64,000 bases of DNA, taken from contig JACPHP010000015.1 in NCBI GenBank assembly GCA_016188605.1, positions 18,833-82,832 on the forward strand, in the 5' to 3' direction. Origin of the DNA: Candidatus Spechtbacteria bacterium. GTDB taxonomy: Bacteria; Patescibacteriota; Minisyncoccia; Spechtbacterales; JACPHP01. Below the pieces are notes generated by a model, which did not search any database, was not told the origin of the DNA, and worked only from the letters and a program-made list of their open reading frames with translations. Position numbers and translations under genes: made by a program. Shown here one piece after another: positions 2,358-45,201 of the stretch; position 1 is the first letter of the stretch; the number at the start of each line of letters is the position of its first letter.

Positions 2358-3620
2358 TTACAAAAATGCAAAGAAACCAACGGCTACCGCTGTCATTAAT
2401 GTAATAATAAAAATACCTAATACATTTGAAGTAGCGGAATTGGTAAACCGCCCCATTATATTTTTATTATTGGAAATAAGTAAAATGAGGACTAATATAG
2501 GGGGAGCAATAATAGCATTTAACGCCGCGGAATAAATAAGCATGCGAAAGGGGCTAATTGGCAAGAAGTTTACAAGCAACCCTATAAGCATAGCGGCTAT
2601 TATAACTCCGTAGAATCCATGCGCCTGTTTAAAATTTCTATAAAGCCCTTCCTTCCAGCCCAAGCTTTCAGACAGCGCGTATGAAGCAGAGCCTGCAAGT
2701 ACAGGCACGGCAAGCAGGCCAGAACCAATAATGCCTATTGCAAATAGCAAGGATGCAAAATTTCCCGCAATCGGCTTAAGCGCCAAAGCTGCCTGCGCGG
2801 GTGTTTCAATGCTCGCGATACTAGATTGCCCCAAGGTGGAAGCTGCCGCTATCATAATAAAGAATACAATAATATTGGAAAAAATCATGCCGATCTTAGT
2901 ATCAGTATTCATAGCGTTAACATCTCCCATATTGATTTTAGGCGTTCCCCTGCCCATCATGCGCAATTTATTACTCGCGACCTCTTCTTCAACTTCCTCA
3001 TTTGCCTGCCAAAAAAATAAATAGGGCGACATATTTGTTCCCAAAATAGCAAGTAGTCCCAGTAGAAAAGATTTATTTAATTCGATGTTAGGAATAATCG
3101 TTGCGAAAAAAATTTGCGTCCAGTCTTGTTTAACAGCAAATGCCACGCCCGCGTAAGACAATAACAAGATCGCTGAATATTTTAAGAATTGCGCATAAAT
3201 TCGATAAGAAATAACAACTTCAAGAAATAGTATAAATGATGCTATGCCAAAGAGCAGAAAGGCAAAAGGGATTGGCACGAGCAACTGCATGGATGCCGCC
3301 ATCACTCCTAAATCAGCTCCGATATTAATGGTATTGGAAACTAAAAGTAGCACTACGATAACGTACAATAAACTCTTAGAGTAGGTTTGCTTGATAACAC
3401 CAGCTAGCCCCTTGCCAGTGACCAAACCGATACGGCCGCACATCTCCTGAATCGCCACCATAAATGGTAAGGTAAACAGCGCCGTCCACAACATACCATA
3501 GCCAAACTGCGCGCCGGACTGCATGTGCGCGGCTACGCCTGTAGGGTCGTCATCCGCGGCGCCGCTAATAAAGCCAGGACCCAATATATTAAATATGTTT
3601 TTCTTTTGTTTTTCCGGCAT
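2358..3620 (-). CDS. mntH: NRAMP-family divalent metal (Mn2+/Fe2+) transporter
   Basis: GPGFISGAADDDPTGVA... MVAIQEMCGRIG motif region and multi-TM architecture typical of Nramp/MntH. Confidence 0.75.
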   Translation of the reverse strand: MPEKQKKNIFNILGPGFISGAADDDPTGVAAHMQSGAQFGYGMLWTALFTLPFMVAIQEMCGRIGLVTGKGLAGVIKQTYSKSLLYVIVVLLLVSNTINIGADLGVMAASMQLLVPIPFAFLLFGIASFILFLEVVISYRIYAQFLKYSAILLLSYAGVAFAVKQDWTQIFFATIIPNIELNKSFLLGLLAILGTNMSPYLFFWQANEEVEEEVASNKLRMMGRGTPKINMGDVNAMNTDTKIGMIFSNIIVFFIMIAAASTLGQSSIASIETPAQAALALKPIAGNFASLLFAIGIIGSGLLAVPVLAGSASYALSESLGWKEGLYRNFKQAHGFYGVIIAAMLIGLLVNFLPISPFRMLIYSAALNAIIAPPILVLILLISNNKNIMGRFTNSATSNVLGIFIITLMTAVAVGFFAFL

Positions 3621-3628
3621 ATGGCATT

Positions 3629-4465
3629 TTATGAAGTCTTTTTAACCACAATCATAACTTTTTCTACTGAAAAAATGATTTCGTGGTTGCCGGTGGGATA
3701 ATCTTGAAGCGCGTTATATAACACATCTTCTGCGTAACGATATTTTTCGCCGCGTCTTGTTCCCGAGTCATTAGTGATAAATTCTTTAGTTGCCGAGTCG
3801 TACCCGCGAATAAGAATATTGTGCTGTATCGGACCGGGAGGCACATAAAAAGGATTGCGCAATTTCCTACCATTAACAGGCACAATTACCATGTTTCCCC
3901 TTTCAAGCTCCGCCTTAATATCCGTAGTAGTAATATTCTCCTTAAGTTCCACATTACTATAACCAAAATATCCTTTGAATATTCTATCAATAGTATCTTG
4001 CGCCTTCGTGTCGCGGTACTCACCGTACATTTTTTGCTCCCAATCAGAAATGGTGATAATCTGGCTCTCCGCGTCTAAAGGAGCAATTGATTTCTTGCCC
4101 CGTACCCACAACATCGCCATAAGGACAGAAGCTTCTTCGCATCCCGCTTCTTGCCGCTGGTCTGCCCAATTGCCTAACGGAGCTTGCGATATAAATGGCA
4201 CGCTAAGAGAGGTTGCGCTACTTGATATGGCCGTTGGCGTAGATGCTGTTGGTGTTGGAGTTACTGGCGCAGCTACGGGAAGTTTGACCGGAGTATTAAT
4301 TGGACGCAACGATTGTTTTATGGATGTTGTAGTAGTTGTTATCTGTTTATCAGTGTACATCCCAATAACTACGCCACCTAAAACCAAGGCAAGACAAATC
4401 AAAAATCCCCAAAGTATTATTGGGGCGTAACTGGATGATGATTGCGTTTTTTGCACTCCTTTCAT
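3629..4465 (-). CDS. Membrane-anchored protein with Thr/Pro-rich linker and C39-like cysteine-peptidase-like domain
   Basis: N-terminal TM, TTTTS...PVTPTPTASTPTA linker, and GNWADQRQEAGCEEASVLMAML resembling Peptidase_C39_2. Recognised by memory only. Confidence 0.4.
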   Translation of the reverse strand: MKGVQKTQSSSSYAPIILWGFLICLALVLGGVVIGMYTDKQITTTTTSIKQSLRPINTPVKLPVAAPVTPTPTASTPTAISSSATSLSVPFISQAPLGNWADQRQEAGCEEASVLMAMLWVRGKKSIAPLDAESQIITISDWEQKMYGEYRDTKAQDTIDRIFKGYFGYSNVELKENITTTDIKAELERGNMVIVPVNGRKLRNPFYVPPGPIQHNILIRGYDSATKEFITNDSGTRRGEKYRYAEDVLYNALQDYPTGNHEIIFSVEKVMIVVKKTS

Positions 4466-7171: not shown

Positions 7172-8182
7172 ATGGTCTCACAAGTAGACAAATCAAACAT
7201 GCGCCAAGTAATATTGGATTTTCCTACCCAGCTTGAGACGGGATTAAAATGCGCGCAGCGCGCTATTCCCATAATTAAAAACCCTGTAACTAAAATTGTC
7301 ATTGCTGGCATGGGCGGCTCGGCATTGCCGGGTGAGCTGTTGAAGCTTGTTGCGGGCAATGGCTCTATTCTTTCGCGTCCTGCTGAAATACACATCCATC
7401 GTAATTACGGACTGCCCTACTACGCGGATGATCAAACGCTTGTCATCTGTATTTCATATTCCGGAGGCACTGAAGAAGCAATCAGCGCATATGATGAAGC
7501 TCGCGTAAGAAAATTGCCCGTAGCTGTTATCGCCATGGGTGGAGCCCTGCTTGAAAAAGCTCTTCGCGACGGCGTGGCGGTGGCGCAAATTCCAACAACA
7601 CATATTCAGCCAAGATCGGCGATTGGATACCAATTTGCTGCTTTGATAAAAATTTTAAGCAACGCCGGAATTATTTCTTTACAAGACGATGCGCTTATCG
7701 CCGCCGCCAAATCACTATCGCCCGCTTCGTCAGAAAGACATGGGAAAACTATTGCTGTAAAGCTAGCAAGGCGCACACCGCTTTTCTACGCCTCACAGGC
7801 TAACAAGGCGCTTGCGTATATATTGAAAATAAAAATAAATGAAAACGCCAAAACAATGGCTTTCTACAATTATTTTCCTGAGCTTAACCATAATGAAATG
7901 GTCGGGTTTACCCAGCCGCAAAACAAATTTTCTATCCTTATGTTGACTGATAGGAGTGATAATCCTCATATTCAGCGCCGCATGGACCTCACCGCTGACA
8001 TCGCCAAAAAATACCACATTCCCGTACTTCCTATTGACATTACAAATGAGAGGATATATAATAAAGTATTCAATGCCCTATTGCTGGGCGACTGGATCTC
8101 TTATTATCTTGCAATTCTCTACAAAACCGACCCAACGCCGGTAAAAATTGTGGAGGAGTTAAAAAAACGATTGGCGAAATAG
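7172..8182 (+). CDS. Bifunctional phosphoglucose/phosphomannose isomerase (SIS-domain, archaeal-type PGI/PMI)
   Basis: IVIAGMGGSALPGELLK and ICISYSGGTEE SIS motifs. ~336 aa as for the bifunctional PGI/PMI family. Confidence 0.55.
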   Translation: MVSQVDKSNMRQVILDFPTQLETGLKCAQRAIPIIKNPVTKIVIAGMGGSALPGELLKLVAGNGSILSRPAEIHIHRNYGLPYYADDQTLVICISYSGGTEEAISAYDEARVRKLPVAVIAMGGALLEKALRDGVAVAQIPTTHIQPRSAIGYQFAALIKILSNAGIISLQDDALIAAAKSLSPASSERHGKTIAVKLARRTPLFYASQANKALAYILKIKINENAKTMAFYNYFPELNHNEMVGFTQPQNKFSILMLTDRSDNPHIQRRMDLTADIAKKYHIPVLPIDITNERIYNKVFNALLLGDWISYYLAILYKTDPTPVKIVEELKKRLAK

Positions 8183-8723: not shown

Positions 8724-8838
8724 AATCTCAAAACTCAAAACTAAAATCGCAAATCTGAATTTCAAATTTAAAATCTTCGCTCGTAGTTTTTAGATTTGAG
8801 CTGTAGTTTTGAGATTTGCCATTTGAGATTTGAGATAT
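8724..8838. repeat. 'atctcaaa' AT-rich word-palindrome element
   Basis: Left arm made of aatctcaaa/actcaaaac words, right arm of tttgagatt words. Family recurs at 10845, 14385, 18955, 27990, 44965 and 63560. Confidence 0.6.
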
Positions 8839-8905
8839 TATGCCTATTTTTACAAATCCAATAACATTTAACATTCTTATCAAATAACTAAAATTAAAAT
8901 AATTT

Positions 8906-10844: not shown

Positions 10845-10970
10845 AAAATTATCTCAAATCTCAAATGGCAAATCTTAAATCTAAATCGCAAATCTAAAAT
10901 CTTATCCGTAGTTTTAAGATTTGAGTTATAGTTTTGCGATTTAAGATTTGAGTTTTGAGATATAATATTA
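10845..10970. repeat. 'atctcaaa' word-palindrome element
   Basis: tctcaaatctcaaatggcaaatct ... agatttgagttttgagat. Confidence 0.6.
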
Positions 10971-11032
10971 TTAGCACTTAAAAATTACAACATATTTTCT
11001 TAAATCGTAAATTTTATCTCTTAAATCTACTT

Positions 11033-15467: not shown

Positions 15468-16256
15468 TTACTTACTGTTAGAAATATTGTTCATTTTTTT
15501 ATCTATTTCCTCGTAAAGCTCTAACCCTGCTTGCTCAAAAACCTTCAATAAATCTTCATAGGTATCACTACCGCCAAGAAAATCCCAGAACTCAACACCT
15601 ACTAATACCTCATTTTGTAGATCAAAAAGCCCTTGCAGCGTCCAGCGTTCATATGGCCTTGGTTCGTAGGGATTATATGGAATAGCAACAATTGTTTTTA
15701 CTTTCGCTTTCGGATTTTCGCTTCCACGCATTGCGATCCAATCGAGCATTTGTTTCTTGATTCCGGTAAATTCATTAATATTTGGTTTTGCGCTTTTTAC
15801 TTCAAAATAATATTCTGTTTCATCTTCCATCTCCACGAAAAGATCGACGCGCTTTTTTAGTTTCTTTCCCATTTCACCTTTACCGGAGACAGACAGCACC
15901 TCTTTTGTTTCATTTTCTTTATCCGGTGATCGCGAAGTAGAGCGCAACTCGCGCATTATGCTATCAATTTTCAAAACTGCTTCACTGCTTATATATCCCT
16001 CAAACTCTTTATATTGTCCGATTGCGCGTTTGGCTCGTGGTTCGGCAATTATTTTTCCAACCTGTTCAAAAATCGATGTCCCAAGTATTGTATTTACCGA
16101 TTGAATAAAGGAAAACAGCGCCATTCTATCTTTGCCAAGCAAACGAAAATGAAATGGCATTGAATTTGTCTCGGGATTATACGTTACTAATTTTTGACGA
16201 ATTCTTCCAACCAAATACTCCTTAATTTGTTTCCTTTGTTGTATTGTAAGTGCCAT
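15468..16256 (-). CDS. Putative type II restriction endonuclease (PD-(D/E)xK-like), cognate of the adjacent methyltransferase
   Basis: Sits immediately downstream of and co-oriented with the MTase. EMEDETEYYFEVKSAK resembles a D...E-x-K nuclease core. Family assignment is from memory only and uncertain. Confidence 0.4.
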   Translation of the reverse strand: MALTIQQRKQIKEYLVGRIRQKLVTYNPETNSMPFHFRLLGKDRMALFSFIQSVNTILGTSIFEQVGKIIAEPRAKRAIGQYKEFEGYISSEAVLKIDSIMRELRSTSRSPDKENETKEVLSVSGKGEMGKKLKKRVDLFVEMEDETEYYFEVKSAKPNINEFTGIKKQMLDWIAMRGSENPKAKVKTIVAIPYNPYEPRPYERWTLQGLFDLQNEVLVGVEFWDFLGGSDTYEDLLKVFEQAGLELYEEIDKKMNNISNSK

Positions 16257-16262
16257 ATTAAA

Positions 16263-17864
16263 TTAATTTCCGTTTTTAAAATGAAAAATTATTTCTGAAT
16301 ATGGATTTCTATCTCGTTCTGTACGATTCAATACGGGGCGCTTAAACTGATTCACGATCTTCATTCCTGATTTTTCAGCAATTGCAGGATAGAGATTATA
16401 TTTATCATTCGCAACAAGAAATGCATCAAAATCGTCAGTTAAAAATTTTCTACAATTAAGCAAAACTTTTGAGATTCCATCGACATACGATGCGCGTGCT
16501 TCTGCGCCCTGTCCTTTATAAAGAGGTCCTATTTCTAAACCATCATTACGCTCAAAGCCAAATAGATCGTATGCATAGGCATGCTGTTCGTGATAATCTA
16601 TCTGACCTACATACGGTGGTGAAGTAAAGATACCTTGTATTTTTTGTTTTTGTAAAACTTCATAACACTGCTTATTTCGTTTCCTAACCTCTTTAAAAAT
16701 ATCAACTGTCCGCGAATCGGCAGGAATAACCGAGTAATGAGCGCCAGTTTTCAATCCGGAAAATATTTTTAGTCGATAAACTGTATCAGTCGCATAATAA
16801 TCAAACCATGACTTGATAGAAAAAAGAGGCTTACATATTTTCTTATGCTTCCAGCAATAATAAGTAGTCAGTTGTGGTTCTTTGAGTGTCGCTAGGTCTG
16901 AATGAGTAGTGGCGCGACACGATCTAATAGTACGGCTTAAAATTACTGCTAAAGCTTTTTTGTTTTTGATATCCTTAATCTTTTTTACTTGCTCAAAGGC
17001 GAAGTCGATTTCTTTTCTAACATTTTTTATATACCACTTATCCAAGAAAGTCTTATCTTCCAATTGTTTTAATTCAATTCCATATTTTTTTACAAGATTC
17101 TTATAAATGCTTAAAAACTCCATTTCTTTTTCTGTGGCATATTTCTTTTCGTCATTGATTTGCCCACGCTGAACTTTATATTTAAAGTCTGGGCTTGGAA
17201 AATAAGAGTTATTAAACTCCGCCATAGATTCTAACAGCTCATTTTCAAATGCAATCATCTTACCATCTACCTCGTAACCCGTCATGGCTTGCTTAATTTT
17301 TTTTACCTCATTTTCAAGAGAGGTAATATCATAATCAAGTAACTTTACATCCGTCATCATGCAGTTGAAATGAGAAATATCGATGCCAATTGAATGCATG
17401 CCCATTTCAGTTGCTTGTACAAGTGTTGTGCCAGAGCCGGAAAACGGGTCCAAAATAATATCACCTGACTTGAAATACGCGCTTGTTTTAAAATCGTCGG
17501 TGTGGCTATCAATAAAATACTCTACTAATTGCGGAATAAACTTGCCCTTGTAGGGATGAAGCCTGTGGATATGTTTGGTCGTATCTTTCTCACGTAAATT
17601 GTCAAAAGATAATGCCCAATTTAAATCATTGCCAAGCTGCTTTTTCCAATTTATCTCTCTCTGCCCTTGATACGAGCCATAGTAATTTTTAAGATCACTA
17701 ACATCAACAAAAATAGAGTTACCGCCATTGTGCTTTTTCACTTTCCCGTACTGCACCAAATACGAGATATTCGATTCACTAACATCACGCTTGAGAAAAT
17801 CACTGGCCCACTGGCTAGCTTCTTTAATGGTTAGTAAATTTTTAGTTTGTTGTAAGATATTCAT
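16263..17864 (-). CDS. DNA amino-methyltransferase (N4-cytosine or N6-adenine), alpha-like motif order
   Basis: HPYKGKF...DPFSGSGTT (motifs X and I) near aa 100-150, and TSPPY (motif IV) near aa 415. SPPY favours m4C. Confidence 0.75.
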   Translation of the reverse strand: MNILQQTKNLLTIKEASQWASDFLKRDVSESNISYLVQYGKVKKHNGGNSIFVDVSDLKNYYGSYQGQREINWKKQLGNDLNWALSFDNLREKDTTKHIHRLHPYKGKFIPQLVEYFIDSHTDDFKTSAYFKSGDIILDPFSGSGTTLVQATEMGMHSIGIDISHFNCMMTDVKLLDYDITSLENEVKKIKQAMTGYEVDGKMIAFENELLESMAEFNNSYFPSPDFKYKVQRGQINDEKKYATEKEMEFLSIYKNLVKKYGIELKQLEDKTFLDKWYIKNVRKEIDFAFEQVKKIKDIKNKKALAVILSRTIRSCRATTHSDLATLKEPQLTTYYCWKHKKICKPLFSIKSWFDYYATDTVYRLKIFSGLKTGAHYSVIPADSRTVDIFKEVRKRNKQCYEVLQKQKIQGIFTSPPYVGQIDYHEQHAYAYDLFGFERNDGLEIGPLYKGQGAEARASYVDGISKVLLNCRKFLTDDFDAFLVANDKYNLYPAIAEKSGMKIVNQFKRPVLNRTERDRNPYSEIIFHFKNGN

Positions 17865-17865: not shown

Positions 17866-18936
17866 TTACGCTTCGTGAATGCTCACTTTAATCTTCTTCT
17901 CAATTTCCTTGAGCACTGCTGAATTCTCTATCAAAAACTTTCGCGCGCCTTCCATGCCCTGGCCTAATTTGGTATCACCGTAGGCAAACCACGAACCCGC
18001 GCGCTCAACCACGTTATACTTTAATCCCACGTTAATTACATCAGCTATATAGGAAATACCTTCGTTGTACAAAATATCAAACTCCGCCGTACGGAAAGGC
18101 GCTGCCACTTTATTCTTTACTACTTTGGCATGTACTCTATTACCGATAATTTCTTCGCCTTGCTTAATTTGCGCGGCGCGGCGTACTTCTAGGCGCACTG
18201 ACGAGTAAAATTTCAGCGCGTTTCCGCCAGTGGTTGTTTCAGGATTCCCATATACAACGCCGATCTTCATGCGGATTTGATTGATGAAAATTACTGTAGT
18301 GTTTGTTTTGCTGGTAATTGCCGTGAGCTTGCGCAAAGCCTGCGACATTAGTCGCGCCTGAAGACCCATGTGCGAATCGCCCATCTCGCCCTCAATTTCC
18401 GCGCGTGGCGTCAGCGCCGCCACAGAGTCAACGATGATTACATCAACACTACCGGAACGCACGAGCGCTTCCACAATCTCAAGCGCCTGCTCGCCCGTAT
18501 CTGGCTGCGAAATAAGAAGAGTTTTAATATCTACCCCGATGCGCTTTGCGTATTCCGGATCAAGCGCGTGCTCCGCGTCAACAAATGCCGCGACTCCGCC
18601 GAGCTTCTGCGCCTGTGCCGCTATATGTAGCGTGAGTGTGGTTTTGCCTGAACTTTCCGGGCCGTAAATTTCAATGACACGGCCTCGTGGGATCCCTCCC
18701 ACGCCAAGCGCGATATCCAACGACAAAGAACCGGTAGGAATAATCTCTATGTTTTTGGCCGGCGCATCACCCATTTGCATAATCGCGCCCTCTCCAAAAC
18801 GCTTGCGAATATCGTTGATTGCCGCGTTCAGCTCTAGGGACTTGCCCTCCTTGCCCTGAGCATTGCCGAAGGGTTTGGCCTGGGATTTTGCTGAAGCCAA
18901 TTCATCTTTTTCTTCTTTCTGTGGTTTCTTGGACAT
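17866..18936 (-). CDS. recA: Recombinase RecA
   Basis: [10 protein letters not shown] Walker A. Full-length RecA pattern. Confidence 0.95.
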
Positions 18937-18954: not shown

Positions 18955-19070
18955 ACTTATCTCAAATCTTAAATCGCAAAACTCAAAACTGAATCTAAAA
19001 TCTCAAAACTTTTTCTGTAGATTTAAGGTTTGAATTGTAATTTTGCGATTTGCAATTTGAGTTTTGAGAT
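18955..19070. repeat. 'atctcaaa' word-palindrome element
   Basis: ttatctcaaatcttaaatcgcaaaactcaaaact ... ttgcgatttgcaatttgagttttgagatt. Confidence 0.55.
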
Positions 19071-21902: not shown

Positions 21903-21974
21903 ACATAAACATTATATACTAATTCTTCCAAATTTCCAAAATATATCTGGCCTTATGCACAGTAAACCGCTGAC

Positions 21975-22100
21975 CCCGCTCAACGTCGCGCCCTTCGGCT
22001 TGTGCGGAGGGGTGTAGGAGAGGTTTTTGTCACCAAGGGTAATTTCTTTTTGCATTTCTGGGCAGATCTTATTTAGCTTCGTTCTGCGCCCGTTCTACCA
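21975..22100. repeat. ~115-bp direct repeat, copy a (includes the last codons and downstream region of the 22069-23154 gene)
   Basis: tcgcgcccttcggcttgtgcggagg...cttatttagcttcgttctgcgcccgttcta shared with 23215-23340 at ~80% identity. Confidence 0.6.
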
Positions 22101-23154
22101 TGAATTTCACGCCATCCTCCATATTCTCTACTTCAAGCTTAATTTGAGGATGACTATGATGAAATACTCGGAAAACTTCGTCAGCAAATGCTTGCCCAAC
22201 CGTGGGAACTTTATCAAAATCAAAAACGATTGTCTTAAATTTTTCCAGTCCAGCCAATACTCTGCGTGCCTGCGAACGAGAAATATGTACGCCACCAATC
22301 GTGTAAAGTTTTACACGTATCTCTGTTTTATCGAAACCATAGTCATTGCCACCGCCTGCCAAGTTAGTATACTTCTTGAAAACCTCATCCAAATGCCTTT
22401 CTGATGTTGCGGATATCTTGAAAGTCACTTGCGTCCCCCTCTTTATTTTATTCACGGTTTTGACAAAAATATCTGGCAAGTCGTTATTTACAATAAGCTG
22501 AAACCCGAAACTATCAAGAGTAAAATTATCTCCTACTTTTGAAGTAAAGAATATGCCTTCGCCCGAGTGCGACTTGGGCATAGTAGTTGTCTTGCCTTTC
22601 AATATATCTTGGATTGCTTCAAGCTCTGAATTAAGACCTCTCTGCTTCATTACGTTGCGAAAAACACCAATACCTGAATCTTTAACTACGAAAGAAAGCA
22701 TCTTTTTTTGTACAGATACTTCTATGCCGATACGAATAGACTTGGAATGCTCAATTGCGTTATTAAGCATCTCTGAAAAAGCATACGTAAAGATACTACG
22801 CACGTTTTCAGGAAGATTTTTTAGCGTCGGAAAAGTCTGCTCAATTTGGTCCAGTACTATATGCTCTTCAAGACCTTTGTTCTTAAATGATTTAGCATAG
22901 ATTAATGGAAATATTTCTTGGTGGGCTTTAGCGTATTCGTTGGTTACATAAAATGCCTTTTTTGTAGAACCAAGCTTAATAAGCTTGTTTTCCATAACAA
23001 GCTTGGATACTAAAAGGATTATATACTGCCGAGAAACTTTAAACTGCTCCACCAGATCCCTGGAATACAGCCTGCCTCGTTCCTCGGCCATTTGTAGTAT
23101 TTGTTCTTCTGTTATCATAGATTGTAAAGTAATTGTAAACCAATCTATATTCAA
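22069..23154 (-). CDS. Putative regulator: N-terminal winged-HTH plus histidine-kinase-like ATPase (HATPase) domain
   Basis: N-terminal wHTH-like segment. FSEMLNNAIEHSK N-box and DSGIGVF G1-like motif of the GHKL ATPase fold. Confidence 0.45.
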   Translation of the reverse strand: MNIDWFTITLQSMITEEQILQMAEERGRLYSRDLVEQFKVSRQYIILLVSKLVMENKLIKLGSTKKAFYVTNEYAKAHQEIFPLIYAKSFKNKGLEEHIVLDQIEQTFPTLKNLPENVRSIFTYAFSEMLNNAIEHSKSIRIGIEVSVQKKMLSFVVKDSGIGVFRNVMKQRGLNSELEAIQDILKGKTTTMPKSHSGEGIFFTSKVGDNFTLDSFGFQLIVNNDLPDIFVKTVNKIKRGTQVTFKISATSERHLDEVFKKYTNLAGGGNDYGFDKTEIRVKLYTIGGVHISRSQARRVLAGLEKFKTIVFDFDKVPTVGQAFADEVFRVFHHSHPQIKLEVENMEDGVKFMVERAQNEAK

Positions 23155-23214
23155 TTGTCAAGCAATTGACAAGTAACCCCAAAACACCGCCGCAGACCTG
23201 TCCAAATGAACCGA

Positions 23215-23340
23215 AATTCTCATCCGTCGCGCCCTTCGGCTTGTGCGGAGGGTGTAAGTAATAGTATTATCGCTAAGAGTGATTTCCTTTCGCATGTCCG
23301 AACAGATTCTTATTTAGCTTCGTTCTGCGCCCGTTCTATT
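23215..23340. repeat. ~115-bp direct repeat, copy b (carries a duplicated ...ERAQNEAK-stop gene tail)
   Basis: See copy a. Lies between hicA and the 22069-23154 gene. Confidence 0.6.
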
Positions 23341-23386
23341 TATTGAAGTTAAGCTTCAATGAGCTCGTTTAAGCTTAACTTCAATA
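23341..23386. terminator. Perfect 16-bp-arm palindrome (tattgaagttaagctt ... aagcttaacttcaata) downstream of hicA
   Basis: Direct reading. Likely a bidirectional terminator. Confidence 0.5.
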
Positions 23387-23419
23387 AATAAATTTATCCT
23401 CTTCTATAAAGTCTATCGG

Positions 23420-23686
23420 CTACAATTCTTTTTGAATATCCTCCCAGGTCACACCGCTAATATTTTCTATTTCTTTAAGCACATAATATAACGTGGACTT
23501 CTTTAGGTCGTACGGCAGGGTGACAGATTTTTGATTCTTTGGCCATGTAATTTTATAATGGCTGCCATTTCCACCCTTTTCGTCTAAAACAAAACCAAGG
23601 CGCGCTAAAGCCTTGGCTAGTTTGTTCCTCTTAATTTCTCCTGGAAGTTGGCTAAGCGAGGGCATAATCCTTTTGCTCTGCTCCAA
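23420..23686 (-). CDS. hicA: HicA-like mRNA-interferase toxin
   Basis: 88 aa. KLAKALARLGFVLDEKGGNGSHYKI pattern (YcfA/HicA dsRBD-like). Overlaps the upstream HicB-like gene by 35 nt. Confidence 0.5.
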   Translation of the reverse strand: MEQSKRIMPSLSQLPGEIKRNKLAKALARLGFVLDEKGGNGSHYKITWPKNQKSVTLPYDLKKSTLYYVLKEIENISGVTWEDIQKEL

Positions 23687-23987
23687 CTTTTACAATATTA
23701 GCTTCTTTAGCGTAAGAAGAAGGAATCTCAAATGCAGTCAGAATCGCATCTTTAATATTCTTATCCAGTTCTGCTAAATTTTTGCCGCTGGTAATAATGG
23801 AACCGAAACGAAAATTATTAGACACGGCGGTGATAGTTCCATCTTCATTATTATGAAAGTCGAAAGAGATTGGCCGGTAATGCATCATATACTGGCTCAA
23901 CTCAAAAAGCCCTTTTGGACGAAGATCGCTAGGGGTAAAAACTTTTTTTATAATATAATCATTTATAACTTTGAAAACTCTTGCCAT
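23652..23987 (-). CDS. hicB: HicB-like antitoxin (RNase H-like fold, UPF0150-like)
   Basis: 111 aa. FDFHNNEDGTITAVSNNF...GKNLAELDKNIKDAILTAFE pattern. Partnered with hicA. Confidence 0.5.
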   Translation of the reverse strand: MARVFKVINDYIIKKVFTPSDLRPKGLFELSQYMMHYRPISFDFHNNEDGTITAVSNNFRFGSIITSGKNLAELDKNIKDAILTAFEIPSSYAKEANIVKVGAEQKDYALA

Positions 23988-24035
23988 ATGCTGTACATTT
24001 ATTCCTATGATAAATAAATAGTAACTATTGCTAAT

Positions 24036-24092
24036 ATGAATGTCTACAGTTTATACCGAATAGTAGACATTGTCAAGAAAAATGTCTACTGT
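24036..24092 (-). promoter_or_regulatory. Candidate hicBA promoter with triple operator half-sites (aatgtctac / gtagacat)
   Basis: Minus-strand TTGACA, 17 nt, then TAAACT, with three copies of the (a)tgtctac palindromic word overlapping the -35 and -10. Confidence 0.35.
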
Positions 24093-24277
24093 TTTATTAT
24101 AGCCCAAAAGCAGTAATTTATCCTAACATGCAATATGCATTTTTTACACATTGCTTTTTGTAGATTTGTTGAAGCGATGGGACTGTTGTACTTTTTGCAA
24201 CAGTCCCATCCCGCCTAGATGGAGTGGTTATGAGGGAGTGTTATTCATGATTCACAATTCTGCATTCATGATTCAAC

Positions 24278-24320
24278 TCAACAACAAAACAGCCCTTTTT
24301 TTGGGCTGTTTTGTTGTTGA
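24278..24320. terminator. Long perfect hairpin (caacaacaaaacagccc-ttttttt-gggctgttttgttgttg) downstream of rpoC
   Basis: Stem of ~17 bp with a T/A run. Bidirectional rho-independent terminator geometry. Confidence 0.7.
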
Positions 24321-24326
24321 GTTCTC

Positions 24327-37810: not shown

Positions 37811-38348
37811 GACTGGGGGATAGTCGTGCCATTGGCAAGCCGGTGCGCCGTGATGGCGCCGCCGGCCACGACCTTACCGCCCGCGGCGGTAAAAATACGA
37901 TACATGACTTGCCCCTTTCCTGCGAAGCCCAGCGCTTCTGCCGGCTCCGCCTCCCCCTCGCGTCCCATGACGCTAGTGAAATTTAAATTTAAAAATATAT
38001 GAATCTAAAAGCCCGACACACCAAGTGTCGGGCTTTGTCTGCATTATCCCGCAAGACAGGGGCTAGGCGTTTATTCAACCCACCGATGACTAAGCCCGTC
38101 TGTGGAAAAATACAGTTCTTTACAATCTCGTGAAGCCCACGAGCTATTGTAGCTACTCTGGTAATAGCCAATTTATGCCACAGTCCAGAATGAACCGTTG
38201 TCGAGGGGAAATCTATGATCATCCTAGTGGCCATAGAGTTTAACCACTACCACCCTATGGGCATAGTGAGAGAACCCGACTGTTCGTTCTAGATCACACC
38301 AACTGTCTGCCTGCGCTGTATGGGTGAGGCCTTAATCCGACTGAAAAA

Positions 38349-38398
38349 GTCAATAGCAAAAATCCTGCCAGTTAACTGGCAGGATTTTTGCTATTGAC
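38349..38398. terminator. 22-bp-stem perfect hairpin (tcaatagcaaaaatcctgccag-ttaa-ctggcaggatttttgctattga) downstream of the 5S rRNA
   Basis: Direct reading. rRNA-locus terminator geometry. Confidence 0.65.
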
Positions 38399-38417
38399 CC
38401 TATTCTAATCATTCAAC

Positions 38418-38522
38418 GGCGGCTACCTACTTTCCCGGGACGAACCAAGTATCATCGGCCTTGGAGCATTTCACTTCTGTGTTCGGAATGGGAACAGGTG
38501 GGACAACTCCAGTATCGCCGCC
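38418..38522 (-). rRNA. rrf: 5S ribosomal RNA
   Basis: Reverse complement reads GGCGGCGATACTGGAGTTGTCCCACCTGTTCCCATTCCGAACACAGAAGTGAAATGCTCCAAGGCCGATGATACTTGGTTCGTCCCGGGAAAGTAGGTAGCCGCC. Helix I ends pair. Confidence 0.8.
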
Positions 38523-38844
38523 ATTGAATGACTACAATAAAATATTCTTTGACGAAATAAACAATTAAGATTCTTTTATTGAAAAGAGCCTTGTAATTCT
38601 GCGGTTGCGCATCATACAAATAAAGTCGGATATACTTAGTACTGCTCGGCTTAATCCCTCTCGGGGCTTACACCTGCAGCCTATCAACCTGATAATCTTT
38701 CAGGAATCCTGAGTTCTAATCTTGGGGCGAGTTTCACGCTTATATGCTTTCAGCGTTTATCTCTTACGAACGTAGCTACCCAGCAATGCTCTTGGCAGAA
38801 CAACTGGTAGACCAGAGGTTCGCTCTCTCCGGTCCTCTCGTCAC

Positions 38845-39720
38845 TTTTCCCCCTATTTCTAGGAGCGCAGACTATATCTTCATCCTCTCTAATTTTAATT
38901 AGAGTAGGAGTTGGCGTATTACCCATATGTCAGCGTATTCTTCCTTGTCAGCCTCTGCATGAATTACAAATAAATGTAATTCAACGCTTAGGCTGAGTGG
39001 AATACTTGCAGAACATATAAGTCGTTATGTTCGATTAATCTCAAACATAATCAGTCGTTACGGGGTTAAATCTAGAATTTTATACAATTCGCTTTTTGTT
39101 TTCTTCCTCTTAGTAACGTAATTTTCTCTTTGGATTACTAAGATAAAGTCAACAAGTTCTGCTAATTGCTTTTTTGTTAGCTGATTAAATTTTGTAGAGG
39201 CTAGAATTTCGCATGCTTTAAGTAATGCGGAAGCTTGAAGTTCCTTGAAACGAATATAAGGCAATAAATTTTTAAGAATATCTCTTATTTGCTTATAACC
39301 ATTTATCCGAAGCTCGGTCATCCCATCATTTCTTTTGGAAATATAACCGATTCTTAGAATTTCTTGTATCCAATACAAAGTTTTTTCATGTCTGGTGTCT
39401 TGATAAAAACAAATGACTGGCATAAATCGAATTCCGATTGCGCCATCCTTACGCTTTTTTATTTGAAGCATAAGACTTCCGTCTCCATCAAGGAAACCAG
39501 ATATGTACGCTAACTCAATTTTAGATCGACTTCCCACGGTATTATCTTATCACATTCTGGTCCTCAAGCAAATTCCGACATATCTAAGGACCGTGTGATA
39601 TGTTTTCTCATTCGAACCAAAATAATAATTAAGATTTCACCGTTATTAGCCAAATTGTCATCGCAAATTACTTCGCGAAGTAGCAGGGCCTTAAAGGCCT
39701 ACTAGGAGAGACCCCCCTCA
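38845..39720 (-). mobile_element. Group I intron (I1) in the 23S sarcin-ricin-loop region, carrying a LAGLIDADG ORF
   Basis: Exon breaks after ...CTCCTAGTA and resumes ...TGACGAGAGGACC. Conserved group I S-element GATGAAGATATAGTC at 38880-38866. Boundaries approximate. Confidence 0.6.
39058..39537 (-). CDS. LAGLIDADG homing endonuclease (single-motif)
   Basis: YISGFLDGDGSL motif. 159 aa, inside intron I1. Confidence 0.8.
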   Translation of the reverse strand: MGSRSKIELAYISGFLDGDGSLMLQIKKRKDGAIGIRFMPVICFYQDTRHEKTLYWIQEILRIGYISKRNDGMTELRINGYKQIRDILKNLLPYIRFKELQASALLKACEILASTKFNQLTKKQLAELVDFILVIQRENYVTKRKKTKSELYKILDLTP

Positions 39721-39861
39721 AAACTCGACGCCTGCAACAGATAGAGACCAACCTGTCTCACGACGGTTTGAACCCAGCTCGCGTACCGCTTTAATTGGCG
39801 AACAGCCAAACCCTTGGGAGCTTCTCCACCCCCAGGATGCGACGAGCCGACATCGCTGTCG

Positions 39862-40285
39862 AATTTTTTTGTGATCCATACTTTCATATGGCTTAGACTA
39901 TATCTTCATCTCGTCTCGGATACCAGTGTTAAATAACACATCATATCTCAATTTTTTTGACGAGAGTCGGCGTGTTGCCTTGCACTAAATGGCAAAGCCT
40001 CCCCTTTCGGGTCAGTCGTTACGGGGTTACAACCGGTGCCAATGCACCGGAAATCCCAAATCCCAATTTTCAATTTCCAATCAAATCCCAATTACTTAAA
40101 TCCCAAAACGTTTTGGTCATTAAATCATTTAGTCATTGATTGGTCATTGGAGTTTGGTCATTGGTCATTCCAGCACTTTGTGCTGGTCGAACTTCCCACG
40201 GTGTTGCCGGGCGACATGTCTCTATCATGTCACTGACGGGTTCTCCGTTATAAGCCGAATTTGTTGGTAGAGCATTGCTGCTCTA
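39862..40285 (-). mobile_element. ORF-less group I intron (I2) at the ~L2500 site of 23S
   Basis: Exon GTTTGGCACCT | intron | CGATGTCGGCTC. S-element GATGAAGATATAGTC at 39907-39893. Interior contains tcccaaa/ggtcattg simple repeats. Confidence 0.55.
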
Positions 40286-40419
40286 GCACCCCGATGTTTC
40301 AAGGTGCCAAACCGGGCCGTCGATATGGACTCGCGGGCCCGATTAGCCTGTTATCCCCAGGGTAACTTTTGTCTGATGATCTTCTCCTTTTCTATGAAAA
40401 AGAGTCGGTTCACTAAGTT

Positions 40420-40545
40420 CTGCTTTCGCAACTTGCCAATGCTCCGCATTGGCACACTGATATACACAGATACGAACACGGATATACACCGATTTTATCT
40501 GTGTTAATCCGTTTTCTTATCCACGTTAATCCGTGTGTCAGTGCG
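40420..40545 (-). repeat. IVS-like insertion, family A copy 1 (in 23S, near E. coli ~2375)
   Basis: ccaatgctccgcattggcacactgatatacacagatacgaacacggatatacaccgattttatctgtgttaatccgttttcttatccacgttaatccgtgtgtcagtgcgaagcactgacatc. Identical to 44207-44332. Confidence 0.7.
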
Positions 40546-40693
40546 AAGCACTGACATCTTATACTCCCGCTTGATTTTACTCTCGAGGTTTCTAAGAGCG
40601 CGGCTTACTTGCCTTGCAGTAAAGCCAGTTTGTGCCTTTACGCGACCACTCCGATTTCCATCCGGAGTTAACTGACCTTAATAAACGCCTCCG

Positions 40694-41344
40694 CTACAAT
40701 TTAGGCAATGTGTTCCCTAGCATTCCTAGCTTATACCGCATTGATGGCAAAATATATGGATCTATCAATTCTACAAATTTTTCAACCGTAGAACTGTTTA
40801 TATACAATTGCCAAAGGTTTCTCTGCGGCCGCAAATGTGTTTGAACACCAAATTTATTTTCCAATATCTTAATTAGTATAAGATTTTCTGCTTTGGAAAA
40901 ACTTTGCGTATTCAATATCAGCGCGCGATGATGCTTTGATTTTATTGAGCCATCATCCATAAACCAAACTGCTAATACTAATGGCGTGAGCCAACGTTCG
41001 ATCTGTCTCGGTAAAACTTTATGCTTATCTTTATAAAATTGTTGGGCATAAAATCTAAACGCTCCATGACTGATCGTTGAAAACCAATGTTCACGATATA
41101 TCCTATCAAATACAACATGTTGTTTTTCTTGAGGCGGGGTTAATACCCATTCTTTGAATTTTTCATATAACCAAAGAGTGTATTTTTCCTGCCAATATGC
41201 ATGTTCAATCTTCAAACGATAGGTACGTTCGTGATTTTGGGTTTCAAGATGTCCATCACCAAGTAGTACACCAATGAGAATCTCTTTCTGCCCCTCCGAT
41301 AACCGAAGCGTTTGTTTATACGCCTCAATCTTCTTTGATCTCAT
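40694..41344 (-). CDS. LAGLIDADG homing endonuclease (two-motif)
   Basis: LIGVLLGDGHL and LAVWFMDDGS motifs. 216 aa. Confidence 0.8.
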   Translation of the reverse strand: MRSKKIEAYKQTLRLSEGQKEILIGVLLGDGHLETQNHERTYRLKIEHAYWQEKYTLWLYEKFKEWVLTPPQEKQHVVFDRIYREHWFSTISHGAFRFYAQQFYKDKHKVLPRQIERWLTPLVLAVWFMDDGSIKSKHHRALILNTQSFSKAENLILIKILENKFGVQTHLRPQRNLWQLYINSSTVEKFVELIDPYILPSMRYKLGMLGNTLPKL

Positions 41345-41626
41345 AAATGTAGGTGATCCTTACGGATCCTTATGGTCGCCCATAAGTTCAGACTATATCA
41401 CCCTCATTACTCCATAAAGTAATGAGTTTCAGCGTGTAGTCGTTGAGGGGAATGCAATCTTCAAAAATTATGCATTCTTCCCTGCTGATAAGCCGCATTA
41501 CGTGATTTTCACCCTTTCGACTAGGTACACGTACATACTGCATCCATTTAAGGAACGGTTTTCCCAGCATATAGCTGATTTTGCAATGCAATCTTACGAC
41601 TGCATGGCCCCTGTGGCTGTAGCAAG
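40706..41626 (-). mobile_element. Group I intron (I3) near 23S ~L2240, carrying a double-motif LAGLIDADG ORF in its 3' part
   Basis: Exon ...GGGGCGCTAGCCTCAAGAGT | intron | AGCGGAGG.... S-element GTGATATAGTCTGAAC at 41410-41396. The ORF stop TAG overlaps the 3' junction. Confidence 0.55.
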
Positions 41627-41949
41627 CCACTCTTGAGGCTAGCGCCCCACTAAAACTGCCTACCATCCACTGTTCCCTGTGTTTCGCGCAAGGTTAGTTT
41701 TTACATTTTAAAAGATGGGTGTTGCATTGACGGCTCCATCTCGCCCGAAAGCGAAACTTCAAAGCCTACCCACTACGCTACGCAGTCAAAATATAAAAAC
41801 AATGGAAAGCTGCAGTAAAGCTCCTGGGGTCTTTTCGTCTTGTTGCAGGACAACGGCATCTTTACCGTTACTGCATTTTCACCTAGCTCTTCGTTGAGAC
41901 AGTTGCCCAGTCATTACACCTTTCGTGCGGGACAGAAGTTACCTGCCAC

Positions 41950-42994
41950 AATTATGTTACTACCCCAAATACAAATTGAGGACGGAAAGAGCGCTTCGGC
42001 TCCTTCTCTCTATGTCGCCATAGAGTTCAGACTATATCACATTCTCTGGACGAAATCGTACAGAGAGCTTTGGCATGTAGTCGTTGAGGGTTCGTTGCAA
42101 TTTATCTAATTTTTTTCTTTGCGTTATATGTCGTAAAGGATACTGATGAAGAAATATATTTGCAAAAGCTATAATCGTACTTTTTGCATTTGTTTCCCAA
42201 TGACGCAATCCATCCTTTCGCTTTCTCGTATTCCCAAAACCCGTAAAAGCTTTGAGAAGAGAGATAATCTTTTCATCTTTCATTGCGACTGCTATATAAG
42301 GCTCAAGACGATCGTTGCTTCTTTTCCAGCCGAATGATCCTTCGCCATCAATCACTCCAGCTAAAAAATATCCTACCGCATCACGAGAACTTTCCAATAA
42401 AGAAAAACTCTTTTTAATGCGTCCTTCTTCCTTTACTCTCCTTAACGCTTTTCTATATACGCCCATCACTATTGTCTTGCGGCGATGCTCTGCATGACCT
42501 TTATGTTGGTCAAGATATGAAACCGCAGCGCGCATAATTCTAATTCGTTCATTTCCCAAATCGCCACAAATTAGTGGGTACGTGGCAAGAAATGATAAAA
42601 TTATCTTTACTTTTCTTTTACCTCGAAAAGAAAGATTTAGAGCTCCTTTTACTTTAGAAATAACTCCATCATCCTCTCCAACAATTCTATTTATATCTTC
42701 AAGTAATACTCTATCAGAATTAGTTACGGTAATATCTGGCATATAGTAATGCCCAACAGGATGCTTGTTCCGAAACTTAATTACAGAACAAGACATTTCT
42801 GCAGCAAAAAATCCAGAATAATAGTGATGCGAAACTTGCAACGTTTCCTGCTGATTGTCTGACGGCCAAAAATTGACCACACCCGCAGCATTTTTACTCA
42901 TTATATATATTATACACTGAGTAGCTTAGGTTCTCCAGATGTTCCAGCATATAGCCAAATTTTCCAATAAGAGTCACCTCTTATGGTCCCCTGA
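41950..42994 (-). mobile_element. Group I intron (I4) at 23S ~L1931 (after GCGAAATTCC), carrying a LAGLIDADG ORF
   Basis: Exon ...GGTCCTAAGGTAGCGAAATTCC | intron | TTGTGGCAGGTAACTTCTGTCCCGCACGAA. S-element GTGATATAGTCTGAAC at 42044-42031. Confidence 0.6.
42032..42901 (-). CDS. LAGLIDADG homing endonuclease (289 aa, degenerate first motif)
   Basis: YFLAGVIDGEGSF motif, and an upstream YYSGFFAAEMSCS degenerate copy. Confidence 0.75.
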   Translation of the reverse strand: MSKNAAGVVNFWPSDNQQETLQVSHHYYSGFFAAEMSCSVIKFRNKHPVGHYYMPDITVTNSDRVLLEDINRIVGEDDGVISKVKGALNLSFRGKRKVKIILSFLATYPLICGDLGNERIRIMRAAVSYLDQHKGHAEHRRKTIVMGVYRKALRRVKEEGRIKKSFSLLESSRDAVGYFLAGVIDGEGSFGWKRSNDRLEPYIAVAMKDEKIISLLKAFTGFGNTRKRKDGLRHWETNAKSTIIAFANIFLHQYPLRHITQRKKLDKLQRTLNDYMPKLSVRFRPENVI

Positions 42995-43037
42995 CAGAGG
43001 AATTTCGCTACCTTAGGACCGTTCTTTAGTGTTAACT

Positions 43038-43397
43038 CATAGTCGCCTATGAGATCGGACTATATCATACCCATTGCAAGCTCTTCGGCATTCATTGAGC
43101 TTACGGGTTCTTGCGTATAGTCTCTGAGGATTCCCCACCAGAGTGGGGTCTTTCCTGCTGATTGTCCGCGTCACCGAATGGATTATTACTCAAAGAGTAC
43201 CATCGGATTCATGCGGAGTTTCCAGTCCCGCAAGCCTTCCACCATTCATAATTTACGAACGACGTGACTTACGGTTTCCCGATATTGTTTTTGATCGCCA
43301 CAGCAATACTGCGGGATCTAGATTTGTAGCTACTAGCTATTATCACAGACAAATCGGGAACATATAGCAAGATTTTTTAGCGTAACTACAACGGTCA
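43038..43397 (-). mobile_element. Compact ORF-less group I intron (I5) at 23S ~L1900-1917
   Basis: Exon ...GGCCGTAACTATAA | intron | (C)GGTCCTAAGG. S-element GATATAGTCCGATC at 43063-43045. Confidence 0.5.
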
Positions 43398-43439
43398 ATT
43401 TATAGTTACGGCCGACATTCACCGGCGCTTACAGCACGA

Positions 43440-43545
43440 GCCATCCTTCGCTCCTCACTTCGTGCGGAGCTACGGAGTGGCAAGCTGCTTTTACTGAAAG
43501 CATGCATCGCTCCGAAGCTCTTTGCGGAGCAAAGAGCGAAGGACG
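43440..43545 (-). repeat. Structured insertion, family B copy 1 (23S helix ~1850-1880 expansion)
   Basis: ccttcgctc...cttcg...ggagctacggagtggcaagc...gctctttgcggagcaaagagcgaaggacg with a perfect internal hairpin gctctttgc-gga-gcaaagagc. Related copies at 45405-45530 and 59285-59400. Confidence 0.6.
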
Positions 43546-44206
43546 ACAAGCGCTGTTTGACGTTCCGGCATTGGTCAGGTGTCACCCCCTATACATCCTC
43601 TTACGAGTTAGCAGGGAGCTGTGTTTTTGTTAAACAGTTGCCAGGCAAAATTTAACTGCGCCCATCTTGCGATGGGAAGGCATATTCCGAAGTTACGCCT
43701 AGCTTTTTTGCCGAGTTCCTTAACGAAGACTCGCTAGTTCACCTTGGGCTACTCGCCCTGCCTACCTGTTTCGGTTTGTGGTACGGGCCCAACTCATCTG
43801 ATCGTAGAGAATTTTCTTGGAAGACTGCTCTCTTAAATCGGTCTTGACGTGTCAAAACCTGTTTCCTACTTCATCGGTTTATACCATGCGGATTTACCTA
43901 CATGGCGACCTCAAAATAGAAACGTAAATCCAATAATACGCTTAAGATACAAATCTCCGTCATCCCATAGAAATGAGTTGAGGGGCTGGAATATTAACCA
44001 GCTGTCCATCCCCCAGAGCCTTTCGGCTGAGAGGTTAGGGCCGCCTAACCCTTGGATGATTGCCATTGCCAAGGAAACCTTAGGCTTTCGGTGGGCCGAT
44101 CTCGCATCGGCCATGCGGTTACTCATGCCAACATTCTCACTTCTCTACGCTCCACCGCCCCTCACGAGACGACTTCACAGCATAGAGAATGCTCTCCTAC
44201 CACGCC

Positions 44207-44332
44207 AATGCTCCGCATTGGCACACTGATATACACAGATACGAACACGGATATACACCGATTTTATCTGTGTTAATCCGTTTTCTTATCCACGTTAATC
44301 CGTGTGTCAGTGCGAAGCACTGACATCCACGT
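44207..44332 (-). repeat. IVS-like insertion, family A copy 2, at the classical 23S helix-45 (~1170) IVS site
   Basis: Identical to 40420-40545. Flanking exon TACCGAAGACGTG | A | GCGTGGTAGGAGAGCATTCTC aligns with E. coli 23S ~1160-1180. Confidence 0.7.
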
Positions 44333-44964
44333 CTTCGGTAATATATTTGAGCCCCGGTACATTTTCGGCGCAAGAACTCTCGACTAGTAAGCTGTTACGC
44401 ACTTTTTAAAGGATGGCTGCTTCTAAGCCAACCTCCTAGCTGTCTGAGAATTCTCACCTCCTTTTCCACTTAATATATATTTAGGGACCTTAGACTGTGA
44501 TCTGGACTGTTTTCCTCACGAGCGCGGAGCTTAGCCCCCGCGTTCTAACTCCCTTCTTATCAATTCAGGAATTTGGAGTTTGATTGATTCGCCTAGGCGA
44601 AAGCCACGACAAATCATCCAGTGCTCTACCTCCTAAATGAAACAGAAGAGGCCAGCCCTAGAGCTGTTTCGGAGAGAACCAGCTATTACCAGGCTCGATT
44701 AGTTTTTCGCTACTCCCCACAGTTCATCACATAGTTTTGCAAGGCTAACGTGTACGGGCCTCCCTCCAGTTTTATCCGGAGTTCACCCTGACCATGGGTA
44801 GCTCGCCTGGCTTCGGGTCTTATGTGTGCCGCCAAGTACGCCCTATTAAGACTTGGTTTCCCTACGCCTTCGTTCCCATCGGAACTTAGACAAGCGACAC
44901 AGATAAACTCGTTGGCTCATTCTTCAATAGGCACAGCGTCACTCCTCGCTACCGCTCGGAGCTC

Positions 44965-45095
44965 CGAAATCAAATCTCAAAAATCAAATCTCAAAATTGT
45001 GGTATCGCCTTGCGGCGATTATATAGTCTCGCAAAGCGAGACACCTTAGTTTTGAGATTTGAGATTTTAATTTTGAGATTAGAAGCTCGGAGCGA
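44965..45095. repeat. 'atctcaaa' word-palindrome element inserted inside the 23S gene
   Basis: ...gctcggagc|tccgaaatcaaatctcaaaaatcaaatctcaaaattg...ttttgagatttgagattttaattttgagattagaa|gctcggagc.... 9-bp direct repeat gctcggagc at both borders. Confidence 0.55.
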
Positions 45096-45162
45096 TAGCG
45101 ATAAAGCTCCGCTTCTCTGTAGGCATATGGTTTCAGGTACTATTTCACTGCCCTCACCGGGC

Positions 45163-45201
<39 letters not shown>

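Follow-up and report, generated by a model that had tools for sequence, protein, structure and literature searches.

Direct repeats made of partial gene ends around a winged-helix/GHKL regulator gene between rpoC and ftsK in a Candidatus Spechtbacteria genome

The regulator gene and its flanking repeats

The locus considered here lies in a stretch of 64,000 nucleotides (hereafter, the window) of contig JACPHP010000015.1 from a Candidatus Spechtbacteria bacterium (assembly GCA_016188605.1), in which a 2.4-kb accessory island (21903-24326) is found between ftsK and rpoC and contains a regulator gene bracketed by two copies of a direct repeat. On the minus strand, which is the coding strand of all the genes concerned, the order is rpoC (27989-24327), the rpoC terminator hairpin, hicB, hicA, a second hairpin, repeat copy b, the promoter of the regulator, the regulator gene, repeat copy a and ftsK (21902-19719), the latter with its own promoter after copy a. 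The GC content of the island is 0.38, against 0.47-0.50 in ftsK, rpoC, rpoB and recA. The neighbourhood also includes rpoB, the gene of an HTH_25 protein, recA (17866-18936; RecA match with E = 9e-139) and a TdeIII-type restriction-modification pair, and no integrase is encoded within 10 kb of the repeats.

The regulator gene (22069-23118, minus strand) encodes a protein of 349 amino acids from an ATG at 23118, in an open reading frame (ORF) that is open from a TTG at 23154. The protein combines a winged helix-turn-helix (HTH), a GHKL/HATPase domain and a STAS-like DUF4325 domain. In Pfam, DUF4325 (PF14213) is matched with E = 2e-14 and 53.3 bits (cut-off 23) and HATPase_c with E = 1e-5 and 26.1 bits, just under its cut-off of 26.4, and the match to HTH_11 is weak. 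No nuclease, recombinase or transposase domain was found in it by domain-profile searches, the defence-system libraries gave no meaningful match, and a second copy of the regulator is not present elsewhere in the window. The promoter/operator region (23119-23190, minus strand) is formed by two tandem units of about 33 nt with the motifs TTGACAATTG and TTTACAAT, which are probably an autoregulatory operator; the best sigma-70-like match in the upstream region is TTGACA-18-TACAAT (11/12).

The direct repeats around this gene, described in the original prediction, are real, each outer end being about 10 nt shorter than had been proposed. Copy a (21984-22097) and copy b (23225-23338), both on the minus strand and 114 nt long, are spaced 1241 nt from start to start. 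Read on the minus strand, the first 27 nt of copy a are the final eight codons and the stop codon of the live regulator gene, followed by a 13-nt spacer and by the first 24 codons of a lost gene, here called G; copy b is made up of the relic of an earlier regulator 3' end (eight codons and stop), a 14-nt spacer and, again, the first 24 codons of G. The presence of a duplicated gene tail in the upstream copy had been noticed before and is borne out by the coordinates: the last eight codons (ERAQNEAK) and the stop of the minus-strand gene 22069-23154 are contained in a perfect 31-nt block, X31, which lies in the tail of the regulator gene in copy a (22067-22097, minus strand) and directly after the hicA hairpin in copy b (23308-23338, minus strand), and tblastn located the 9-residue relic of the regulator tail at 23339-23313. 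At the other end of the repeat a perfect 28-nt block, Y28 (21984-22011 in copy a and 23225-23252 in copy b, minus strand), covers G codons 16-24 (TLRTSRRARR); in copy a it is followed by the ftsK promoter region, while in copy b the G frame runs on for at least 8-9 codons more. X31 and Y28 occur exactly twice each in the window with three mismatches allowed, and zero occurrences are expected from shuffled sequences.

The two copies are a mosaic of identical and diverged segments. Their alignment, which has 115 columns and an overall identity of 83%, contains 20 differences (two of them single-base indels), all of which fall within the central 57 columns (65% identical), whereas none is found in the outer 30 and 28 columns; if the differences were placed at random, both end blocks would be clean with P = 1e-7. 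This is not the uniform low divergence expected of a simple recent tandem duplication. Within the shared G frame the 14 differences, counted by hand from the alignment, are distributed over codon positions 3:1:2 as 9:3:2, and the amino-acid replacements between the copies are conservative (Q/R, G/S, K/N, N/T, L/I and S/T). The confinement of the differences to the centre, their third-position bias and their conservative nature suggest that the copies diverged as coding sequence in separate lineages. As for the ends, the identity of X31 may simply reflect a conserved stretch of a conserved gene, since the regulator loci L005-L008, at 78% overall identity, have 24 identical nt in common with it, and Y28 may be an exchange point or a conversion tract. 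The secondary structure of the repeat is within the range of shuffled controls for both copies and both strands (z from 0.90 to -0.43), with no attC-like or RNA fold. The sequence GAASGGGCGC, considered as an uptake or hotspot signal, was rejected, being present only in the two X31 copies.

After the regulator stop codon, the spacer of 13 or 14 nt leads in both copies to an ATG that opens the same small frame. In copy a this frame reads MQKEITLGDKNLSYT, then undergoes a 1-nt frameshift (an extra C) at the border of Y28, continues with the same 28 nt and ends, so that G is cut off right after Y28. In copy b the corresponding fragment, G' (23200-23295, minus strand), reads MRKEITLSDNTITYTLRTSRRARRMRISVHLD; about 36 nt past the copy continue its G reading frame, and the ORF closes only within the regulator promoter, with a stop at 23158. 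A full G gene is absent from the window. No family match was obtained in Pfam, NCBIfam, PDB or by plasmid tblastn, a weak test with a query fragment of 32 residues; a word-indexed search among 5.8 billion proteins gave no candidates, phmmer over 1.84 billion representatives returned one match only, a spurious repeat protein, and two DNA patterns searched in viral contigs were negative or spurious. The start of G may resemble the N-termini of DUF45/YgjP-type metallopeptidases, a likeness that no tool confirmed. The junction of regulator tail, spacer and G follows none of about 80 regulator homologues, and since this unique junction is common to both copies, these are taken to descend from one ancestral junction.

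Immediately beyond copy b, and separated from it by a palindrome, lies the hicBA pair, as originally described. The palindrome (23337-23390) separates hicA from copy b and can fold into a hairpin whose arms measure 27 nt; it adjoins the breakpoint of the missing regulator body. The hicA gene (23420-23686, or from an ATG at 23665; minus strand) matches HicA_toxin with E = 2.8e-7 and 31 bits (cut-off 27); the upstream ORF called hicB (23652-23987, minus strand; 111 amino acids), which overlaps and precedes hicA, has no family match. Upstream of hicB, within 24007-24094 and overlapping promoter-like sites, two 36-nt direct repeats (24017-24052 and 24059-24094) are 75% identical and may be the operator of the hicBA pair. 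A third relic of the repeat upstream of hicB, which would place hicBA in the same array, was considered and rejected, as none rises above shuffled controls.

The gap in relatives and the recurrence of gene-end repeats

The state of the rpoC-ftsK gap in relatives was examined in 80 loci fetched via FtsK from species-representative genomes. In the closest relatives, namely a Candidatus Spechtbacterales genome (L090), L089 and many Parcubacteria, rpoC is followed by ftsK after 43-100 bp, from which the island is recognised as an insertion. In other relatives the gap is occupied by unrelated accessory genes, and neither hicBA nor the regulator occurs there in any of the fetched loci. The comparison with sister genomes suggested earlier thus gives relatives in which rpoC stands beside ftsK with neither regulator nor hicBA present, all of them distant (FtsK identity ≤56%). 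In one relative (L159) the same gap holds an ORF of 183 amino acids bracketed by a 37-nt direct repeat, 36/37 identical (7299-7335 and 7893-7929), that resembles the ftsK promoter region; a non-regulator gene bracketed in this way suggests that the process is not specific to this regulator.

The regulator belongs to a widely distributed family. A total of 7861 homologues were found, the best non-self ones being 80-82% identical, and matches of 69-82% come from Colwell-, Vogel-, Azam-, Kerfeld-, Gracili- and Peregrinibacteria, Deltaproteobacteria and Margulisbacteria, whereas FtsK and RpoC of the same genome reach merely 53-64% in their best relatives. The neighbourhoods of the homologues are mutually unrelated, and in four loci (L003, L169, L171 and L172) the gene stands alone among housekeeping genes. 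About 70 nt upstream of the ATG are 75-90% identical family-wide, between members from distant phyla, compared with a mean of 58% in the coding sequence, and travel with the gene: the same two units of about 33 nt are found in L012 (2711-2773) and the conserved region also in L063 (3948-4000). Homology between loci stops just upstream of the promoter/operator and at the variable last codons of the regulator. Judged from these sequence comparisons, the regulator with its own conserved promoter/operator behaves as a horizontally transferred single-gene cassette. Carriage by phages was rejected, viral contigs holding just 35-39% relatives. In L005-L008 (e.g., L005, 999-9813) a type I restriction system has a homologue of 82% identity between its hsdS and hsdR genes, and an AAA_15/AAA_21 ATPase and a PD-(D/E)XK gene are likewise part of it; the position of the homologue is similar to that of the anticodon nuclease PrrC.

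Repeats around the family were sought by comparing the 1.2-kb flanks of the gene, upstream against downstream, in 58 unique homologous loci, and the same test was applied to 236 control ORFs of 250-500 amino acids from the FtsK loci. Direct repeats were found in 12 of the 58 loci, tightly around the gene in 11 (31-141 nt, 76-100% identity), while the controls yielded one tight case (1/236), an 18-nt match (Fisher p = 8e-8 versus 11/58). The original prediction had not included this family-wide recurrence, nor the start of a second lost gene inside the repeat and the mosaic structure described above. In seven of the 11 loci the repeat could be recognised as a terminal segment of a neighbouring gene, and the gene concerned mostly differed from locus to locus: the 5' end of truB (L063), of a Pif1-like helicase gene (L068) and of a PD-(D/E)XK nuclease gene (L012), and the 3' end of MgsA/RarA (L015, with the same gene in L017), of a DEAD-box helicase gene (L011) and of an ExoIII-family nuclease gene (L076 and L083). 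In these loci the neighbouring gene is intact on one side of the cassette and present as a truncated relic on the far side, and one boundary of the repeat lies 0 to about 30 nt from the start or stop codon of the intact gene. Elsewhere the regulator's own terminator and operator region makes up the repeat, with a second copy on the downstream side of the gene (L059, 3402-3499 and 4656-4753), or the downstream repeat copy reaches into the end of a regulator ORF that extends past the usual stop (L062); L020 and L031 have short repeats. Some 400 nt separate the downstream copy in L059 from a D12-class DNA methyltransferase gene that comes after it, an arrangement of sequences that hints at regulator control of neighbouring restriction-modification genes.

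Some of these loci are arrays. In L063 the order is a truB start (17 nt), an unrelated gene of 343 codons, a second truB start (76 nt), the regulator and intact truB; L012 contains four copies of the nuclease start and L076 three copies of the ExoIII-family end. The 343-aa ORF that shares the L063 array (2798-3829) has a faint DIT1_PvcA match, and the array of L012 holds, at 855-2123, a 259-aa ORF and a PBECR3-like nuclease ORF of 153 amino acids. The junctions are not constant, the upstream copy ending 37-244 nt before the ATG and the downstream copy starting from 60 nt before to 204 nt after the end of the stop codon, a variability that fits recombination rather than an end-specific enzyme. 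Differences between the repeat copies of the family loci fall on codon positions 1:2:3 in the ratio 16:10:33, the counts being small, and in L012 the relic and the intact gene start differ in length by 18 nt with the reading frame kept; on this basis the copies look homeologous, as a donor and a resident sequence would be. Nor is there a fixed-length target duplication of the transposon type, as duplications range from 17 to 141 nt with variable junctions, and the regulator has no transposase domain, although no systematic search for terminal inverted repeats was made.

Origin of the repeats

The repeats are best read as a recombination scar, not a functional element, in which the remnant of an older, lost copy of the regulator-G junction stands beside a horizontally acquired regulator; a probability of roughly 60% is given to this reading. 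Recombination into a paralogous 3' end and a lost tandem paralogue had been offered as alternatives, and the data favour a combination of both. On one side, the upstream copy preserves the 3' end of a second regulator, followed by the same spacer and frame, which implies that a second unit once stood in tandem and that its body was lost; on the other, a centre that is 35% diverged with a coding-like bias between identical ends argues against a fresh duplication and for recombination between homeologous units. The scar itself is of a known, ordinary kind, and the gene-end duplications recurring around the regulator family are the more interesting part.

The following sequence of events may be envisaged. 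Regulator B and, after it, G would have formed a resident unit between rpoC and ftsK, and a diverged unit (promoter, regulator A, spacer and start of G) would have entered beside it by homology-driven recombination, either through a Campbell-type single crossover of a circularised fragment or through a one-sided, anchor-type recombination. The product would be two homeologous units in tandem, i.e., regulator B, G' (about 34 codons), promoter, regulator A and G. Subsequently, the body of regulator B would have been deleted except for its last 27 nt, an event that may have been caused by the arrival of hicBA since the breakpoint adjoins the hicA hairpin, and G of the second unit would have been deleted beyond codon 24. 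What remains would be the intersection of the two units, with regulator tail, spacer and start of G on both sides of the surviving regulator. Direct observation covers the anatomy of the locus, the mosaic with its coding-like divergence, the insertion as compared with relatives and the gene-end duplications that recur around homologues, whereas the order of these events, the type of crossover and the status of X31 and Y28 as exchange points or as conserved stretches are inferred. Consistent with a Campbell-type or one-sided scar are the direct 114-nt copies around promoter and regulator, and the presence of a host recombination function (RecA) with no dedicated recombinase, as no integrase neighbours the repeats. 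In the family as a whole, the junctions vary, a recombinase is missing, the targets are many, the copies look homeologous and arrays occur; these features point to short homologies used by host recombination and argue against a transposase or an integrase.

Several points weigh against the scar of homeologous recombination. The combination of identical ends and a diverged centre is its least explained feature: it is not a direct prediction of a single crossover, and it needs the extra assumption of a conserved regulator tail together with crossover or conversion at Y28. Two regulator-G units that diverged independently have to be postulated, the adjacency of regulator and G being known only in this genome, and neither a donor nor a full-length G nor a genome with both units intact was found. 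Close sister genomes are likewise missing from the species-representative collection, in which the best FtsK match is 56%; no genome with a single regulator-G unit was found, the gap of the relatives being free of any unit, yet these relatives are distant (FtsK ≤56%). The third-position bias in the window comes from 14 differences only, and the control genes of the repeat test are mostly housekeeping genes, not other accessory genes.

It may be asked whether the two copies exist at all in the genome or derive from a loop or strain bubble at a shared 31-mer that was mis-resolved in assembly. The perfect blocks are indeed k-mer sized, and one contig (L002) extends exactly from one X31 to the other. 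The window is matched at 100% identity by Logan contigs from nine sequencing runs; seven of these contigs end at 23309, within the repeated 31-mer X31, as k=31 assemblies would. Two further contigs from different runs bridge both copies with unique flanking sequence and overlap each other by 149 nt, L181 running from hicB through hicA and copy b to 23176, while L001 starts at 23324, crosses the regulator and copy a, and reaches into ftsK. As a collapsed repeat could not, moreover, produce diverged centres, an artefact is extremely unlikely. A more serious alternative is an in-situ tandem duplication of a 1241-bp unit (promoter, regulator and start of G), whose first copy was then mostly deleted, while the centre of the repeat diverged or underwent short-patch conversion. 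Such a duplication is a common event that requires no donor, and is the simpler explanation; it accounts for one unique junction being common to both copies and for end blocks that are perfectly identical, as after a recent event. Against it stands the non-uniform divergence, 35% in the centre versus 0% in the 58 flanking columns (P = 1e-7), and neither the third-position bias nor the conservative changes would be expected of two decaying relics. If a foreign patch of about 57 nt is invoked, a homeologous donor is still needed, which brings this explanation near to that of recombination between diverged units; it is therefore regarded as possible and, on balance, unlikely.

The enrichment around the family, about 50-fold for flanking repeats, could also suggest a dedicated mobile cassette devoid of a recombinase, inserted by its own wHTH-GHKL protein or a helper at gene ends, with long and variable target duplications and the formation of arrays. 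The compact inserts (1127-1460 nt between the repeat copies), the strongly conserved left part, the arrays at one gene end and the wide distribution of the family would suit such a system, which, if true, would be a previously unrecognised cassette system without an integrase. The ends, however, are not fixed, with junctions that vary by tens to hundreds of nt and sometimes fall inside the gene tail or the promoter; a nuclease or recombinase domain is absent, the copies look homeologous instead of identical at birth, and genes unrelated to the regulator are found in the same arrays (gene X in L063, the PBECR3-like ORF in L012) or bracketed likewise (L159). A dedicated cassette is consequently very unlikely. 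Integron cassettes are similar in forming promoter-proximal arrays of small, recombinase-less single-gene units, but here there is no attC-like hairpin, no integron integrase within 10 kb, and the gene has its own promoter. Integrase-mediated islands are typically marked by direct repeats formed from gene ends and by tandem accretion, and they share with the present loci the repeats at a gene terminus, the intact gene on one side with a relic on the other, and the tandem arrays. The corresponding explanation, an integrase element that entered an att site overlapping a gene end and decayed to a regulator between attL and attR, would be in line with several loci in which one repeat boundary coincides with the gene terminus. 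It is nevertheless difficult to reconcile with the lack of an integrase within 10 kb and in the inspected arrays, with the six or more different target genes, which would need as many integrase specificities, and with repeat structure not above shuffled controls; furthermore, the repeat of the window includes the coding tail of the cassette itself. In general, these loci have no recombinase in or next to the element, no fixed ends and many targets, so that site-specific integration is hardly credible.

Recombination between homeologous units finds closer counterparts among processes that rely on host functions. In Escherichia coli, single crossovers of circular DNA with a gene-end fragment gave duplications of the lacZ end of 109-950 bp in 56 of 60 events (PMC3240628). 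As in Campbell-type integration, the insertion considered here is flanked by a direct duplication of the homologous segment, and host recombination suffices, RecA being encoded in the window; the differences are that a circular intermediate is hypothetical here, that the copies look homeologous, that later deletions trimmed the structure, and that some repeats of related loci (17-41 nt) are shorter than the experimental ones. True homology-facilitated illegitimate recombination (HFIR), by contrast, usually results in insertion and deletion, not in duplication (PMC3240628). Sequential displacement, attributed to HFIR, has been proposed for the immunity arrays of the Vibrio cholerae type VI secretion system (T6SS) and for the orphan 3' ends of Rhs: a conserved adjoining sequence acts as the anchor, and new modules displace older ones, of which rows of orphaned gene ends are left (PMC5361080). 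The truB, PD-(D/E)XK and ExoIII-end arrays (L063, L012 and L076) and the orphaned regulator tail of the window are comparable with them, although those are toxin-immunity loci while here the cargo is of regulator type and the relics are those of housekeeping genes or of an earlier cassette. In well-studied species, 10-18% of the small segments that vary among strains have direct repeats on their flanks (PMC2884548), a frequency comparable to that in the regulator family (19%); that survey, however, linked the repeats to no single gene family, gene-end relics or arrays (PMC2884548).

If recombination between homeologous units is accepted, the rpoC-ftsK island would have been built through several recombination rounds, and recombination between the identical blocks of 28 and 31 nt could remove the regulator once more. 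More broadly, the regulator is found bracketed by partial ends of neighbouring genes, mainly in candidate-phyla bacteria and sometimes in arrays; were a larger survey to confirm this, small genomes would gain single genes by homology-guided insertion and not by classical mobile elements.

Further features of the window

Directly downstream of recA, a low-GC region (15468-17864; GC 0.36) contains the type II restriction-modification pair mentioned above, in which an N6/N4 DNA methylase accompanies a TdeIII-type endonuclease (E = 6e-76); this pair has the appearance of a further accessory insertion into a conserved row of genes. On the minus strand, an apparent rRNA operon is found at 38000-48600, whose 23S gene has several introns carrying LAGLIDADG-type ORFs (39058-39537, 40694-41344 and 42032-42901, minus strand), with tRNA-Ala and tRNA-Ile genes at 48127-48591. 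This region includes a 124-nt direct repeat with 100% identity (40435-40558 and 44204-44327), of which a third copy, 82% identical, is located at 58823-58910; the pair was considered as a second case of the repeats described here and looks unrelated, lying among the LAGLIDADG ORFs near the two tRNA genes. A family of palindromic repeats, about 110-128 nt long and alignable in either orientation, occupies intergenic sites at 8724-8840, 10849-10977, 18957-19070 and 63570-63698, and many perfect palindromes of 40-52 nt occur in the window, for example at 55794-55845, 38349-38398 and 47251-47294.

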